From the NCBI GenBank assembly GCA_032372955.1, contig GCA_032372955.1_4725.1: DNA of 64,000 nt. One strand, 5' to 3'. The notes beneath the pieces are model-generated. The model was not told the origin of the DNA. It was given only the letters and a program-made list of their open reading frames with translations, and searched no databases. Position 1 is the stretch's first letter. Each line of letters opens with the position of its first letter. Made by a program: the position numbers and the translations under genes. Positions 4,459-60,501 of the stretch are shown here, piece after piece. The stretch is from Escherichia coli. GTDB lineage: Bacteria; Pseudomonadota; Gammaproteobacteria; Enterobacterales; Enterobacteriaceae.

Positions 4459-4482
4459 TTTTCACGGCTATATTACTTAAGT
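4459..4482 (+). promoter_or_regulatory. putative early promoter TTTCACGGCTATATTACTTA
   Basis: Near-identical motif also at 27737 and 57151, related copy at 9736; contains TATATTAC core. Confidence 0.45.
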
Positions 4483-4569: not shown

Positions 4570-5034
4570 ATGACTTTAGCACAAGAAACCCAAATTCTGT
4601 TTATCCTGTCTCTCATCCTGGGCGCAGGTCTTATAATTTATTTAGCAGTAGCAGGTATGCGGTTACGTGAAGATGATAAACTTTATCAGATGACCGCCAA
4701 CTGGTTATTACGTCGTATCAACAAAGACTACGACAGCAGCTACTGTGAATTACTCGACAATCTGTCCAAAGACTGGATTCGTGCTTACGCTTACCCTGTT
4801 CGCCGTATGGCACAGCTGAGCAAGAAGTGGTTCAAAGCCAATCCGCGCACGACAATCAAACTCAACGGTATGGAACAAGCAAAGGTAATGACTTGGTTAC
4901 TTAACTTCGAACAGTATCCTGAAAATTGGAAAGTGGCCAAGATTCGTACAAACCGTTCCCTGGATGAAGTTATTCGTTTAGCGGCAGAGTTGCGCGGTCG
5001 TAATGTTAACGACGTTATCGCAGCTTTGGTTTAA
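4570..5034 (+). CDS. hypothetical membrane protein (N-terminal TM helix)
   Basis: ORF track; hydrophobic stretch FILSLILGAGLIIYLAVAG. Confidence 0.65.
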   Translation: MTLAQETQILFILSLILGAGLIIYLAVAGMRLREDDKLYQMTANWLLRRINKDYDSSYCELLDNLSKDWIRAYAYPVRRMAQLSKKWFKANPRTTIKLNGMEQAKVMTWLLNFEQYPENWKVAKIRTNRSLDEVIRLAAELRGRNVNDVIAALV

Positions 5035-17378: not shown

Positions 17379-17419
17379 CCTCCTCCTGCCCATGTGGTGG
17401 GAGGAGGATGTTTATGCTG
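17379..17419 (+). promoter_or_regulatory. GC-rich hairpin followed by TTTATGCTG
   Basis: CCTCCTCC / GGAGGAGG stem then ATGTTTATGCTG. Confidence 0.45.
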
Positions 17420-27736: not shown

Positions 27737-27762
27737 TCCTTTCACGGCTATATTACTTACGT
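27737..27762 (+). promoter_or_regulatory. putative early promoter TTTCACGGCTATATTACTTA
   Basis: Identical 20-mer core to copies at 4459 and 57151. Confidence 0.45.
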
Positions 27763-29550: not shown

Positions 29551-29560
29551 TCATTAACCA

Positions 29561-29587
29561 CCCTCCCTTCGGGGAGGGTTTATGCTG
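29561..29587 (+). promoter_or_regulatory. GC-rich hairpin followed by TTTATGCTG
   Basis: CCCTCCC TTCG GGGAGGG then TTTATGCTGCG. Confidence 0.5.
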
Positions 29588-34282: not shown

Positions 34283-34294
34283 TGAAAAGGTGTT

Positions 34295-35620
34295 ATGATG
34301 AGCAAACTACTGTTTGAAATTAACGGGAAAGAATATACACCGCCCCAGGCAGTTATCGGTGCGTTATTACGATACACTGCATACCGGCGTCAAGGATGGT
34401 TGTTTGATATTGATGGACCGGCGTTTATTACAGCGATACAGGATGCTATCGCCCCGAAGAAATTATGCGATAATTACAATACTGAACTGTCGTACAAATT
34501 ATCGCCTATGGTTCCATATGCGTCCTATAAGGAACTTTTGACGGGTATATGTTCGTATGAACAAGGTGGGTCCACATCGTACACGCGTGCGCTGGAATTC
34601 GTAGAAGAAATAGTGCGTCGATTGAAAGTTGATCCGTATAACACGCGTAAGGGAATAATACAACTAATGGTGTACGATTTCTCGGCTAGCCAAGAAATCA
34701 TCGCGGAGTATAATCCTTACTTACTTATACGTGCTTTCTTCTGGATCGATGCAGCGCTAGATGATCGTTCCGGACCATGCCGTTTAGCGATTCATGCCGG
34801 TGAACGCCAGTTGAAGCAATGGTTGGAAGATTGCGATATCAATTTGCATGGCATGACGATACCCGATTTCTTCGAAGACTATTTTTCGTTATCGGGACTC
34901 GATGATGCTGTAGTAGAACTGAAACCTACGGATACCGATCCGGTTGTCGTCGAACTTAAAACCGAATCGGATACCAGCAACCATTCGTTCGAGCCGTTAG
35001 CGGTAGAGAAGCCTGCATTTTGTTTAGATGTTGAAAACCTTAGTTTGGAAAAGAATGGAGTATTGCTGGAAATCGGTATCGTGTTCTTCGATCTGGCTAA
35101 TCCAGAATCCATTGTTAACGGTCCGCGTATAGATATCTTCCCTGACGTTCATGGTCAAATCGCTGACGGCGGTCGTATCAGTGAATCAACAGTAGAATGG
35201 TGGCAAACCAAAGCACCAAAGGAAGCGCGCGACTATTGTTTTCAACATTGTAAGGCAATGGGTTATAAAGAAGCCATCGCCGAAGTAAATGCGTTCGTCA
35301 ACAGTATTCGTGACAGAATGACTGAATACTACGGTAAAGATACCTTCTATTATCTTGCTCGTGGTGAAACAGATTGGCCTCAATTAGAGCATTGGTTCCG
35401 TAAAGCGGGCTTTAAGCCAGTTTGTCGTTATAACCAGGTTCAGGATATCCGTTCGATGATTGCTGCGTATCAAGACAAACCGGTATCCATCTTAGGCACC
35501 AAAGAGTATCCAGACATGGGTATTCCGCTGATCCGTCATACCGCTATCGGTGACGCAATCATGGATGCGTACGACGTTGCGTTAGCGCGAAGCATGGCGA
35601 CGTCTAAGCTACTGAAGTGA
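34295..35620 (+). CDS. DEDDh-type 3'-5' exonuclease (DnaQ-like domain in C-terminal half)
   Basis: Exo motifs LDVENL, ARGETDW, HTAIGDAIMDAYD. Confidence 0.55.
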   Translation: MMSKLLFEINGKEYTPPQAVIGALLRYTAYRRQGWLFDIDGPAFITAIQDAIAPKKLCDNYNTELSYKLSPMVPYASYKELLTGICSYEQGGSTSYTRALEFVEEIVRRLKVDPYNTRKGIIQLMVYDFSASQEIIAEYNPYLLIRAFFWIDAALDDRSGPCRLAIHAGERQLKQWLEDCDINLHGMTIPDFFEDYFSLSGLDDAVVELKPTDTDPVVVELKTESDTSNHSFEPLAVEKPAFCLDVENLSLEKNGVLLEIGIVFFDLANPESIVNGPRIDIFPDVHGQIADGGRISESTVEWWQTKAPKEARDYCFQHCKAMGYKEAIAEVNAFVNSIRDRMTEYYGKDTFYYLARGETDWPQLEHWFRKAGFKPVCRYNQVQDIRSMIAAYQDKPVSILGTKEYPDMGIPLIRHTAIGDAIMDAYDVALARSMATSKLLK

Positions 35621-35671: not shown

Positions 35672-35986
35672 ATGTCTGAAAAGCATATTGAAATTCTTGA
35701 TGCCGCTATCGCTTCGAAAGATAGCGGTACATTCATCAAAGCGGTATTTGCAGAACAGCGTAATAACCCAGCAACGCTGAATAAAGTTCGTGATGCAATT
35801 GCATTCCGTCTTACCAAGTCAGATATTTCTGATGTGGATAAAACAACGATGCGTAAATTACGCGACGATCTTAATGCATACATCGCTCGTGGTTGTACGG
35901 ATAAAACCGTTCGTGAGGTTCTCGATTCTAACGTGAAATACGAATCAGACTTCAAGAAGAACGGTTCAACACCGAAAACAGAATAA
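35672..35986 (+). CDS. hypothetical protein
   Basis: ORF track; RBS AAAGGAAAGAAG upstream. Confidence 0.6.
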   Translation: MSEKHIEILDAAIASKDSGTFIKAVFAEQRNNPATLNKVRDAIAFRLTKSDISDVDKTTMRKLRDDLNAYIARGCTDKTVREVLDSNVKYESDFKKNGSTPKTE

Positions 35987-35995
35987 CAGCATATT

Positions 35996-36036
35996 CCCTC
36001 CTCCTTCCCTGATGGGTTGGAGGAGGGTTATGTTCG
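35996..36036 (+). promoter_or_regulatory. GC-rich hairpin followed by TTATGTTCG
   Basis: CCCTCCTCC / GGAGGAGGG stem. Confidence 0.45.
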
Positions 36037-36049
36037 TATTGAGGTTAAC

Positions 36050-36349
36050 ATGCTCGATCGTGAACGATTGAAGAAAACGACAAAGCTCCTCGATGAGTTC
36101 AGAACCGCGGGTCAATTCGAGAGCTTCACTAAGAACCGAGCTATTGTTCGATTCCTTCTTTATTTGTGTTGCGTTGATTCGTCAGAGCGGGTTAGCCATA
36201 CGTGTCCTCTGCTCAACGAAAATCGTATTCCGTTATACAAAGCCGAAGAGTTATGTGAGTTCTTGATGAAATTCGGCGTTTTCTGTAACAGATATCGTGG
36301 CGATAGATCCGATGGGTATCTTGTCGAATTTAATGTCTTATTTCATTAA
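36050..36349 (+). CDS. hypothetical protein
   Basis: ORF track frame; start moved to ATG 36050 downstream of hairpin. Confidence 0.5.
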   Translation: MLDRERLKKTTKLLDEFRTAGQFESFTKNRAIVRFLLYLCCVDSSERVSHTCPLLNENRIPLYKAEELCEFLMKFGVFCNRYRGDRSDGYLVEFNVLFH

Positions 36350-36434
36350 AACATTACTGAAATAGGATATCTAATGAGGTGAAATTCCTCGCTACTACTT
36401 ACTTACTATAATTACTTATTTACCGAGGTATCAA

Positions 36435-37037
36435 ATGACTGTTTATTTGAAAATGATTAACGGGCATTCCAATGAAATTGCCGACGCTAATCGTCCTTTC
36501 AATTTATATCCCGTTCCTGACGGAGCTTGTATTGAATTCAATCGTGATCCTACAGGGAATCCGTTCATTAATGTCGTCATGAGCGATAAAACAAAAAGAT
36601 CGTTTTATCCGACAGGTAATACCTATGTCGTTGAGGATAAAACGACGGTATCCAAGTTTGAGTTCGAAGAAAAATTTAGCGCTGAAGATCGTAAAGAGAC
36701 GTTAGATTTTCTTCAGAGTTTGGATTCATATCAGAATTTACCGGCGGATATTAAATGCTTAAAAATCGAAGATATGCTGTTAGCATTAAAACATACACCT
36801 CTTAAATGTTCAGAGAAAACGCCACGCGTGTTTAATATCCGTCTATTGAAATACTGTACACAACCGGTTAGAGTGAAAGAGAGTCAAACTCCATTGCTGG
36901 AAAAGTTATTCAGCGATTGTGGTTATCCCCACGTTGGATTTATTTACCCGGAACCAGAAAAATCATCAACCGAAAGAACGGTAATGCACATTGTTGTTAA
37001 ATTACCTTCGGCGGAGAATATCCTGTCGGGTTGGTGA
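36435..37037 (+). CDS. hypothetical protein, paralog family member 1 of 3
   Basis: Shares N-terminal pattern with 37110 and 37730 (LKMI..G, NRPF, VPD, IEFNRD, GNTYV). Confidence 0.65.
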   Translation: MTVYLKMINGHSNEIADANRPFNLYPVPDGACIEFNRDPTGNPFINVVMSDKTKRSFYPTGNTYVVEDKTTVSKFEFEEKFSAEDRKETLDFLQSLDSYQNLPADIKCLKIEDMLLALKHTPLKCSEKTPRVFNIRLLKYCTQPVRVKESQTPLLEKLFSDCGYPHVGFIYPEPEKSSTERTVMHIVVKLPSAENILSGW

Positions 37038-37051
37038 TATACCTCAACCCT

Positions 37052-37077
37052 TGAAGGGGAGGGTTAAATCCCCTTCA
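37052..37077 (+). terminator. stem-loop between paralog cassettes
   Basis: TGAAGGGG / CCCCTTCA inverted repeat. Confidence 0.4.
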
Positions 37078-37109
37078 TTACTACTACTAGGACTACTAAG
37101 GAATAAAAC

Positions 37110-37643
37110 ATGAGCGTTATTGTAAAAGTAATGGGCAACTGCGATACTAGCGATCGTAACAACGCAAAACCGTTTACATTGCATGTGGTACCAGATCGCT
37201 TGACCACAATTGAATTCAACCGCGATTCGATGGGTAGACCGACACTGGAATTCGTCGCCCATGGTGATAAGGATCAACGATTTATCGATTACCCAGGTGG
37301 TAACGTTTATGTGATGGACAATGGTAACACCATCGCAACGTATGCCTATTCCTGTGGTTTTGGGAAGGATGATGTTGACCGTATGTACGCGTACGTCCGT
37401 GCTACGAAGTATGGGGAAGTGCTGGATGCGAGTGGTAAACTTGACGATCGCCTTATTTGTGCGTTGTTGGAAATCCGTTTAATCGATCGTGATATAAAAC
37501 AAACGCGCAATATCGAGTTTGTAAAATCAGACAATCCTAACTTTGTTAGTCACGTAAATCGTCTTTTACAAGAGTTGTTTACTGGTGAATTAACGGCATA
37601 TTACGCCGGTGCGAACGGCAAAATCATCGCGATCGTTAAGTAG
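37110..37643 (+). CDS. hypothetical protein, paralog family member 2 of 3
   Basis: Paralog pattern as above. Confidence 0.65.
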   Translation: MSVIVKVMGNCDTSDRNNAKPFTLHVVPDRLTTIEFNRDSMGRPTLEFVAHGDKDQRFIDYPGGNVYVMDNGNTIATYAYSCGFGKDDVDRMYAYVRATKYGEVLDASGKLDDRLICALLEIRLIDRDIKQTRNIEFVKSDNPNFVSHVNRLLQELFTGELTAYYAGANGKIIAIVK

Positions 37644-37653
37644 TAATCCCTAC

Positions 37654-37677
37654 GAGGGGGTGGGATAATACCCCCTC
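37654..37677 (+). terminator. stem-loop between paralog cassettes
   Basis: GAGGGGG / CCCCCTC inverted repeat. Confidence 0.4.
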
Positions 37678-37729
37678 AATTTGTTGTACTATCTATCATT
37701 TCTATTATCTATTATCATGAGGTTCTATT

Positions 37730-38278
37730 ATGTCTATGTTTTTGAAAATGATGAGCGGTTACAATCTCCCCGATGAGAACAATGCGAAGCCTTGTACGGT
37801 TCTACCGCTTTCGGATAAATGTAAGATCGAATTCGGTCGCGACGAGTACGGCGCACCTGTTGTAACCGTCGCCTATGAAGACGGAACAATCGAGAGCTAT
37901 CATCCTGATGGGAATACTTACCTCACCGAAGATCGTCGTACGATCGCAGCGTATGCGTACTCTGAATACGTAGCGCCAGGTCGTCGTATGGCTGTCGAGG
38001 TCACGATGAAAGACCTTAAGCGCTACGACGATTATGCACAGTTCGCAACCAATAACCAGATTGCGCATTTCCTAACTGTGTTATCTTGCGTTCCTCGCGG
38101 ATGCGGCATAACCCGTAAATGTCGTCTGTCTGTTGACGATCGTATCAATGTAGGCGATATTGATAAACTTAGCGATTTTATCGCGGATATGGGTTATCAA
38201 TTTGCTGGCTATACCACAACAAATCCGATGGATGACGAAATTATTTACGTTCTCGAATTCGCTGTTCTCGTGAAATAA
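37730..38278 (+). CDS. hypothetical protein, paralog family member 3 of 3
   Basis: Paralog pattern as above. Confidence 0.65.
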   Translation: MSMFLKMMSGYNLPDENNAKPCTVLPLSDKCKIEFGRDEYGAPVVTVAYEDGTIESYHPDGNTYLTEDRRTIAAYAYSEYVAPGRRMAVEVTMKDLKRYDDYAQFATNNQIAHFLTVLSCVPRGCGITRKCRLSVDDRINVGDIDKLSDFIADMGYQFAGYTTTNPMDDEIIYVLEFAVLVK

Positions 38279-38291
38279 GTTGATTGATGGA

Positions 38292-38320
38292 GCCTCCCGT
38301 AATGGGAGGCTTTTATGCTG
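38292..38320 (+). promoter_or_regulatory. GC-rich hairpin followed by TTTTATGCTG
   Basis: GCCTCCC GTAAT GGGAGGC then TTTTATGCTG. Confidence 0.5.
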
Positions 38321-38442
38321 CCATATCCCGTCCATCAAAACTAACGGATTTTAAGAATTCTCTGAAGCCAGGAGAACCGACGTTGTAAGTAATTAGGGCG
38401 TCTCGACAAAACTCTATTTACTTTTACGACGAGGTGAAAACG

Positions 38443-53609: not shown

Positions 53610-53637
53610 CCCTCCCGGCATGGGAGGGCTTATGCCG
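53610..53637 (+). promoter_or_regulatory. GC-rich hairpin followed by CTTATGCCG
   Basis: CCCTCCC GGCAT GGGAGGG. Confidence 0.5.
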
Positions 53638-53653
53638 ATAAAAAGGAAACAAA

Positions 53654-57150: not shown

Positions 57151-57175
57151 ATTTTCACGGCTATATTACTTAGGT
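57151..57175 (+). promoter_or_regulatory. putative early promoter TTTCACGGCTATATTACTTA
   Basis: Third identical copy; followed by hairpin GGTGAAGC...GCTTCACC. Confidence 0.45.
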
Positions 57176-60453: not shown

Positions 60454-60467
60454 AACAAATCCGTATG

Positions 60468-60501
60468 CCCTTCCTGCGTAATGCAGGAAGGGTTTATGCT
60501 G
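60468..60501 (+). promoter_or_regulatory. GC-rich hairpin followed by TTTATGCTG
   Basis: CCCTTCCTGC GTAAT GCAGGAAGGG then TTTATGCTG. Confidence 0.5.

Follow-up and report, generated by a model that had tools for sequence, protein, structure and literature searches.

The DNA analysed here is a stretch of 64,000 nucleotides (nt), called the window below, from an Escherichia coli assembly (GCA_032372955.1, contig GCA_032372955.1_4725.1), and our subject is an array of small genes that it carries between the genes of a capsid latch protein and of thymidylate synthase (thyA). With 91.5% identity to Escherichia phage vB_EcoM_Goslar, the window is part of a Goslar-like nucleus-forming jumbo phage (chimallivirus). 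The array consists of open reading frames (ORFs) on the + strand that we named p0 to p3 in their order, p1, p2 and p3 being copies 1, 2 and 3 of a family with a common N-terminal domain. p1 (36435-37037) encodes 200 amino acids (aa), p2 (37110-37643) encodes 177 and p3 (37730-38278) encodes 182. The accessory copy p1 has a 100% identical counterpart in a Salmonella Newport assembly (on a contig of 243,859 bp), p2 is the ortholog of Goslar gp144 (YP_009820829.1, 97% identity), and p3 that of gp143 (YP_009820828.1, 84% identity). The first member, p0 (36050-36349, 99 aa), is a stand-alone C-terminal domain.

A sequence-only reading of the region had described a triplicated gene cassette made of three paralogous ORFs with a shared N-terminal signature. 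The three ORFs lie where they were placed, and the residues listed in the signature correspond to the columns that are conserved when the N-domains are aligned (K6, P21, F35, R37, G41, P43, P59, G61, N62, Y64 and T71). The similarity is significant beyond short motifs, with BLASTP E values ranging from 1e-13 to 1e-20 (9e-14 for p1 and p2, 1e-20 for p1 and p3, 6e-14 for p2 and p3; 81-176 aligned residues). The term triplication suits the units, which are homologous including their intergenic parts, but not the proteins as a whole: the similarity common to p1, p2 and p3 is limited to the N-terminal ~85 aa, and two types of C-terminal domain follow it. Type A (~100 aa) is shared by p1 and p3. It also accounts for all of p0, which matches the C-terminal half of p3 (BLASTP E 6e-7) and the hidden Markov model (HMM) of the C-domain. 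Type B is that of p2. Since the two types lack significant profile similarity (hhalign E 0.14), we treated them as different. The set of three is real but incomplete, as p0, the fourth member with a C-domain only, starts just outside the coordinates that had been considered. Its conserved start is the ATG at 36050, with the Shine-Dalgarno (SD) sequence GAGG, while the program-made ORF list starts it at a TTG at 36017. An HMM search revealed no additional N-domain paralogs in the window. By these alignments, the array is composed of four members in the order C(A), N+C(A), N+C(B) and N+C(A). The region had also been called AT-rich, which holds for p1 (GC content 0.387, and 0.36 at third codon positions, GC3) but not for p2 (0.439) and p3 (0.462), whose composition is average for the window (0.454).

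The number and identity of the units vary among close relatives, which bears out copy-number variation as a check of the cassette. In what follows, L-numbers denote the loci compared, L001 being Goslar and L013 a relative from IMG/VR. The p1 cassette (36417-37078, 662 bp) is missing from Goslar in blastn alignments, and both of its ends fall within the repeated TACTACT(AC) leader: positions 36398-36416 and 37079-37097 both align to L001 4397-4415, i.e., the same 19 nt of Goslar match both edges of the cassette. This first slot is empty in Goslar, L004 and L013, and in L007 and L008 it is occupied by a different cassette, P0107, with an N-domain and a B-like C-domain. In L002 and L023, p0 is precisely deleted and the promoter-like element and SD upstream of it are retained. 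Finally, p2 and p3 are both removed in L023, where the start of p2 is fused to the end of p3. For each unit there is a relative that lacks it or has another in its place, so that every one of them is dispensable in some genome, and the homologous intergenic units are an obvious substrate for unequal recombination. The variation extends to the interval between p3 and thyA, where many relatives carry a DUF7448 (PF24240) gene of 287-294 aa, sometimes with additional small ORFs (L002 6956-7819, L004 5658-6521, and also L005, L006, L007, L019 and L022). The window and Goslar lack it, and judging from this distribution it is another presence/absence element of the same hotspot.

The rates of evolution differ between the two halves of the proteins. 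The N-domains are 85-99% identical to those of relatives, with ratios of nonsynonymous to synonymous substitution rates (dN/dS) of 0.01-0.12, vs 91-97% identity and dN/dS of 0.05-0.18 for the flanking latch and thyA genes. The C-domains are 40-96% identical, with dN/dS of 0.16-0.42 where synonymous divergence (dS) is comparable. The C-domain of p2 exists as two deeply diverged alleles with saturated dS, and the switch between them falls at the domain boundary; dS is also saturated between the C-domain of p3 and that of L004. The orthologs of p0 (99 aa) have dN/dS of 0.08-0.15. All copies are under purifying selection, and hence p0-p3 are real genes. Either the constraint on the C-domains is weaker, or whole alleles of them are exchanged. 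One could instead regard the copies as redundant or decaying duplicates with no role of their own, a neutral side effect of unequal recombination in a plastic region. The free gain and loss of units, the C-domain dN/dS above that of core genes, and the deviant composition of p1 would all fit. Yet the ORFs are intact in every relative that has them, dN/dS remains below 0.45 even in the C-domains, the products of gp143 and gp144 are translated, as shown by the detection of their peptides (see below), and even very distant phages have kept the N-domain family. Furthermore, the paralogs are only 26-37% identical, and are therefore old and retained. We consider neutral duplication very improbable.

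These results also bear on the annotation of Goslar. In its RefSeq record (NC_048170), p0 is not annotated and gp145 (75 aa, 134413-134640) is called over it on the opposite strand. Since p0 is conserved and homologous to the C-domain of gp143, and since the minus-strand frame of gp145 is interrupted in the window, gp145 is probably a wrong-strand call.

The intergenic regions follow a common scheme, in which a unit consists of a hairpin, a G-free TACT-rich leader with an SD, and the ORF. The sequence-only reading had noted a GC hairpin behind each of the three ORFs, and all three do fold (all features below are on the + strand). The hairpin after p1 (37052-37077, UGAAGGGGA / UCCCCUUCA) has a predicted energy of -15.8 kcal/mol, that after p2 (37654-37677) is terminator-like, was flagged by a terminator scan and folds at -18.0 kcal/mol, and that after p3 (38289-38320, -17.5 kcal/mol) is followed by a U-tract, overlaps TTTATGCTG, and is conserved in relatives. 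The U-tract is classical after p3 only (UUUUAU), partial after p2 (AAUUUGUUGU), and absent after p1 (CAUUACUACU); the phage RNA polymerases may recognise other termination signals. In the RefSeq record of Goslar, the hairpins after gp144 and gp143 are annotated as putative terminators. Among the relatives compared, the hairpin after p1 is kept behind either of the cassettes of the first slot. A weak hairpin after p0 (36376-36390, GAGGTGAAATTCCTC, -4.9 kcal/mol), kept in all relatives, aligns with the stronger one after p1, and both lead into TACTACTACT and then the SD. The L013 hairpin after p2 has an extra run of C in its 3' arm (4935-4950, ccccccccccc), possibly through slippage or as a homopolymer artefact of sequencing. 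A scan of the intergenic regions with Rfam returned nothing.

The TACT- and TATC-rich repeats that had been reported before each ORF are also present. Tandem Repeats Finder detected (TACT)x6.8 at 36396-36423 and (CTATTAT)x4.1 at 37689-37716, and in front of each of p1-p3 there are 26-33 nt free of G that reach exactly to the SD. The p1 leader (36392-36424) is G-free, with (TACT)n, and contains CTATAATTACTTA; the p2 leader (37079-37109, TACTACTACTAGGACTACTAAGGAATAAAAC, SD included) is identical or near-identical in all relatives; the p3 leader (37687-37718), G-free and with (CTATTAT)n, is conserved in relatives.

There is no sign that the repeats are promoters: no early-promoter or TATG-type motif stands directly upstream of p1-p3. 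The motif TATAATTACTTA, which had been singled out, is not enriched (6 matches vs 4.9 expected) and fits the 19-nt early-promoter-like motif of the phage only with a 1-nt insertion. Two further candidates, TATAATTACT as a repeated promoter motif and AACATTAC, were rejected for lack of enrichment. The + strand of the leaders has no sigma-70-like sites, the 19-nt early motif is not found in the p1-p3 leaders even when 3 mismatches are allowed, and there is no TATG-type motif directly upstream of p1, p2 or p3. The 19-nt motif itself, TTCACGGCTATATTACTTA, has three exact intergenic copies on the + strand of the window (4461-4479, 27741-27759 and 57154-57172), for 0.02 expected. It is likely to serve Goslar-like phages as early promoter, for the virion RNA polymerase, in analogy to the AT-rich early promoter of phiKZ (PMC7598289). 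The CTATAATTACTTA of the p1 leader equals the core of this motif plus a 1-nt insertion and lacks the TTCACGG part, and neither L002 nor L005 shares the resemblance.

A second motif marks the limits of the array. TTTATGCYG occurs 9 times in the window for 1.4 expected, a number reached in 0 of 100 shuffled sequences. Elements of this type are found at 29560-29587, 38289-38320, 53610-53640 and 60465-60501, with other occurrences at 17411, 3611 and sites on the minus strand. A GC hairpin directly precedes the motif at the intergenic sites 29579, 38312 and 60493, and the same arrangement of hairpin and motif is seen for CTTATGCCG near 53630 and for the TTATG upstream of p0. The late promoter of phiKZ, used by its non-virion RNA polymerase, has a T-3ATG+1 motif at the start site (PMC7598289), and TTTATGCYG contains this TATG core, which suggests that hairpin plus TTTATGCYG forms a combined terminator and TATG-type late promoter. 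Upstream of p0, a GC stem (CCCTCCTCC...GGAGGAGGG) followed by TTATG (35996-36035) would be the promoter/terminator junction of the array, and it is this element that L002 and L023 retain despite the deletion of p0. The element after p3 is a putative terminator plus TATG-type promoter-like motif for the downstream genes, orf67 and thyA. As the array is bounded by these two elements, we infer that it forms one transcription unit.

The array resembles the morons of phages in several respects. Its units are discrete and have conserved genes on both sides (capsid latch and thyA). Close relatives in which these flanks are conserved may have a unit, lack it or carry another in its place (p1 in the comparison with Goslar, L004 and L013, p0 with L002 and L023, p2 and p3 with L023). 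Each has its own downstream terminator, if the predicted hairpins act as such; p1 has a deviant base composition; and homologs are found at unrelated positions in unrelated phages. In contrast to morons, the units lack a demonstrable dedicated promoter in the leaders of p1-p3, and they form a tandem array of paralogs instead of single insertions. The classical sigma-70 promoter criterion for morons is nevertheless inapplicable, because the phage uses its own RNA polymerases.

The N-domain has a much broader distribution than the array. Its profile, searched against 1.84 billion representative sequences, matched 157 clusters (defined at 50% identity) with E<=0.001. Most of these clusters are stand-alone proteins of 75-100 aa, and in the others the domain is N-terminal to unrelated, unannotated regions of up to ~480 aa. 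Two long repeat proteins, P0134 and P0156, were discarded from the family as false positives caused by repeat composition. Among chimalliviruses, the domain is found in Goslar, RAY-like Erwinia phages, 201phi2-1 (gp34), Phabio and Viktualia; it also occurs in other jumbo phages (Salmonella phage SA002, Erwinia phage pEa_SNUABM_37 and Proteus phage 10), in 45-kb Acinetobacter myoviruses, and in contigs of phages (~40-117 kb) that were assembled from metagenomes and sequencing runs. The homologs are typically located beside non-coding gaps, near terminase or HNH genes, at moron-like positions of unrelated phages. Pattern scans identified one locus among one genome per bacterial species (GTDB) and two loci in IMG/VR. 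Most homologs of the array proteins lie on contigs of ~235-249 kb in assemblies of Salmonella, E. coli, Shigella and Enterobacter isolates, which correspond to whole genomes of Goslar-like phages.

The family has no functional annotation. Neither p0-p3 nor the two sets of relatives that we searched (68 and 40 proteins) have a match in Pfam or NCBIfam. In PHROG, p2 matches families 10337 (E 3.1e-7) and 10807 (E 7e-6), p3 has a weak match to 10337 (E 0.0074), and p1 has none at E<=0.01, while among 68 diverse N-domain relatives, 63 match phrog_10337 and 38 match phrog_10807, the 379-aa form typified by RAY gp198. No function is attached to these two PHROGs, and the C-domains of the Goslar type lie outside them. 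A literature search found no functional study of Goslar gp143 or gp144, RAY gp198 or 201phi2-1 gp34.

Structure prediction, which the sequence-only reading had put forward as a check, was informative in part. In the AlphaFold2 model of p3, the N-domain is confidently predicted as a 7-strand beta domain (predicted local distance difference test score, pLDDT, ~90), but it has no match among solved structures; the single-sequence AlphaFold model of p3 was unusable (pLDDT 41). When the N-domain profile and three long fusion relatives were searched against the PDB, all hits stayed below the threshold, and we rejected them as chance (CPAP G-box, E 0.016; RNA polymerase alpha subunit, E 0.05; VgrG, E 0.11). 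The weak alignment of residues 32-68 of the N-domain to the single-layer beta-sheet repeat of the CPAP/TCP10 G-box is consistent with a beta structure made of repeated hairpins. We also considered DNA mimicry in view of the acidity of the proteins, and dropped it since their isoelectric points are mildly acidic (4.8-6.1; family median 5.0).

Proteomic data are available for Goslar. The supplement of its virion study by liquid chromatography and tandem mass spectrometry (LC-MS/MS) lists 3 peptides for gp143 (~4-10 copy equivalents per virion) and 2 for gp144 (~1-3), the same range as low-copy parts such as the tail spike. These peptides prove that both proteins are translated. The array proteins could then be low-copy virion proteins, head- or neck-associated or injected, whose N-domain anchors or targets them to the virion and whose C-domain is exposed or delivered into the host. 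Several aspects of the genomic context agree with this. The gene directly upstream of the array (35672-35986, 104 aa) is the ortholog of Goslar gp146 (YP_009820831.1, 96% identity), recently identified as the capsid penton latch protein; the stand-alone homolog of Acinetobacter phage WCHABP1 lies behind the terminase, portal and head morphogenesis genes; those of L014 and L015 are just upstream of the terminase; and TATG-type (late) promoter-like elements stand on both sides of the array. There is also a precedent in the DUF7941 proteins of Goslar and other chimalliviruses, which are virion-associated paralogs with a conserved N-terminal module and variable C-terminal domains (bioRxiv 10.64898/2026.04.21.720040). 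The array proteins have the same organization, as a paralog family within one phage, but DUF7941 proteins are abundant in virions and restricted to chimalliviruses, whereas the array proteins are at trace level, lack a Pfam match, and have an N-domain that is also found outside chimalliviruses.

A trace detection is no evidence of packaging, because the contaminants of the same preparation are 10-100 times more abundant: the non-virion proteins PhuZ and chimallin were measured at ~110-270 and ~84-200 copy equivalents, respectively. gp143 and gp144 are absent from the 28 virion proteins of the atomic model and from the abundant unmodelled ones, and 201phi2-1 gp34 has no note of identification by mass spectrometry, unlike the nearby gp29, gp30, gp32 and gp36. 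Further, each unit is dispensable in some relative, and not all homologs are close to structural genes. In the 116-kb L016, the homolog lies away from them, surrounded by small accessory genes (HNH_3, ArfA-like and RNA ligase). That of the 40-kb L017 belongs to a long series of small genes that match nothing in Pfam, again away from structural genes. In our view, a role in the virion is the main alternative, but a rather unlikely one.

The contrast between the two domains is reminiscent of tail-fibre proteins and polymorphic toxins, where the N-terminal part is conserved and the C-terminal part evolves fast or is swapped at the domain boundary. In contrast to these, the array proteins are small and soluble, and have no detectable enzymatic motif. 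Searches of Pfam, NCBIfam and solved structures found no similarity in sequence or fold to fibres, toxins or immunity proteins.

Taken together, we favour the interpretation that the locus is a recombinationally plastic array of non-essential accessory genes, whose products combine a conserved handle and a variable specificity domain, to which we give a probability of roughly 0.4. The N-domain (~80 aa, all-beta, PHROG 10337 family) would be a common handle for one conserved partner, acting alone in many phages, and the C-domains (two fast-evolving alpha/beta types of ~100 aa) would provide a variable target specificity. Considering the distribution of the family, the dispensability of the units and the asymmetry between N- and C-domains, we infer a role that is most likely at the interface between phage and host, or between phages (host takeover, counter-defence or exclusion). 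Transcription would start at the hairpin and TTATG upstream of p0 by the non-virion RNA polymerase of the phage, the hairpins between units would act as partial terminators or stabilise 3' ends, and the unstructured G-free leaders would favour the initiation of translation. The number of units would shift by unequal recombination between the homologous intergenic regions.

Several observations weigh against this interpretation. The dN/dS of the C-domains is below 1, so that diversifying selection is not demonstrated and relaxed constraint or allele exchange fits equally well. No promoter has been mapped in the array, and its units may instead be transcribed independently. A late-type promoter, should it be real, would be atypical of counter-defence genes, as these are early as a rule. 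The deletion of p2 and p3 in L023 is known from a single 3.1-kb assembled contig. Finally, the peptides in the virion preparation leave room for a minor structural role.

The timing of expression would be less of a problem if the array served phage-phage competition or a persistent (carrier-state) lifestyle, e.g., by superinfection exclusion or modulation of host growth, and not counter-defence. This variant narrows down the accessory-array interpretation and is compatible with a late-type promoter. Such functions are usually borne by accessory, variable, moron-like genes. Goslar-like phages almost always appear as ~240-kb contigs in assemblies of Enterobacteriaceae isolates, and have been described as persistent virulent phages (bioRxiv 10.1101/2024.12.31.630880). 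But the N-domain family is also present in phages without known persistence, such as RAY, 201phi2-1 and the Acinetobacter myoviruses, and we regard the variant as distinctly improbable on its own. Counted together with it, an array of plastic accessory genes with a handle and a specificity domain has about an even chance of being the right explanation.

Other genes around the array also differ among these phages. The 3'-5' exonuclease gene (34295-35620), which has a C-terminal Rv2179c-like domain, has no blastn alignment to Goslar in the 5' third (window positions 34287-35000), and the flanks of this segment are ~92-94% identical to Goslar. The protein has 441 aa here, 409 in Goslar and 344-440 in relatives, which looks like a replacement of the N-terminal domain. 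Downstream of the array, a 67-aa ORF precedes thyA. In L021 (2642-4029), the thymidylate synthase ORF is shortened (249 aa) and is followed by a GIY-YIG/NUMOD3 homing-endonuclease gene, an arrangement that resembles the td intron of T4 with I-TevI.

Variable arrays of paralogous accessory genes are a familiar kind of locus in large phages, and the protein family described here is unstudied. If the units were ordinary redundant accessory genes, the chief value of these results would be in annotation. They define a domain family that has no Pfam entry and is found in many unrelated phages, and they correct the probable wrong-strand annotation of gp145. The locus is a compact, naturally variable hotspot between two core genes, the capsid latch and thyA, that turns over modules of one family. 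With its conserved N-domain, its fast C-domain and the deletions documented in nature, it is easily accessible to genetics in Goslar, where the targets are gp143, gp144 and the unannotated p0. A protein nucleus shields the DNA of chimalliviruses, which is why the host-interaction genes that they still have are of interest; most of these are uncharacterised. It is a tentative thought, to which we attach a low probability, that the ~80-aa beta domain might be a widespread uncharacterised handle of phages, coupled in Goslar-like phages to hypervariable effectors, and that the array might be a diversifying family of nucleus-forming phages that targets the host, e.g., in counter-defence, or that is itself targeted to a compartment or the virion.

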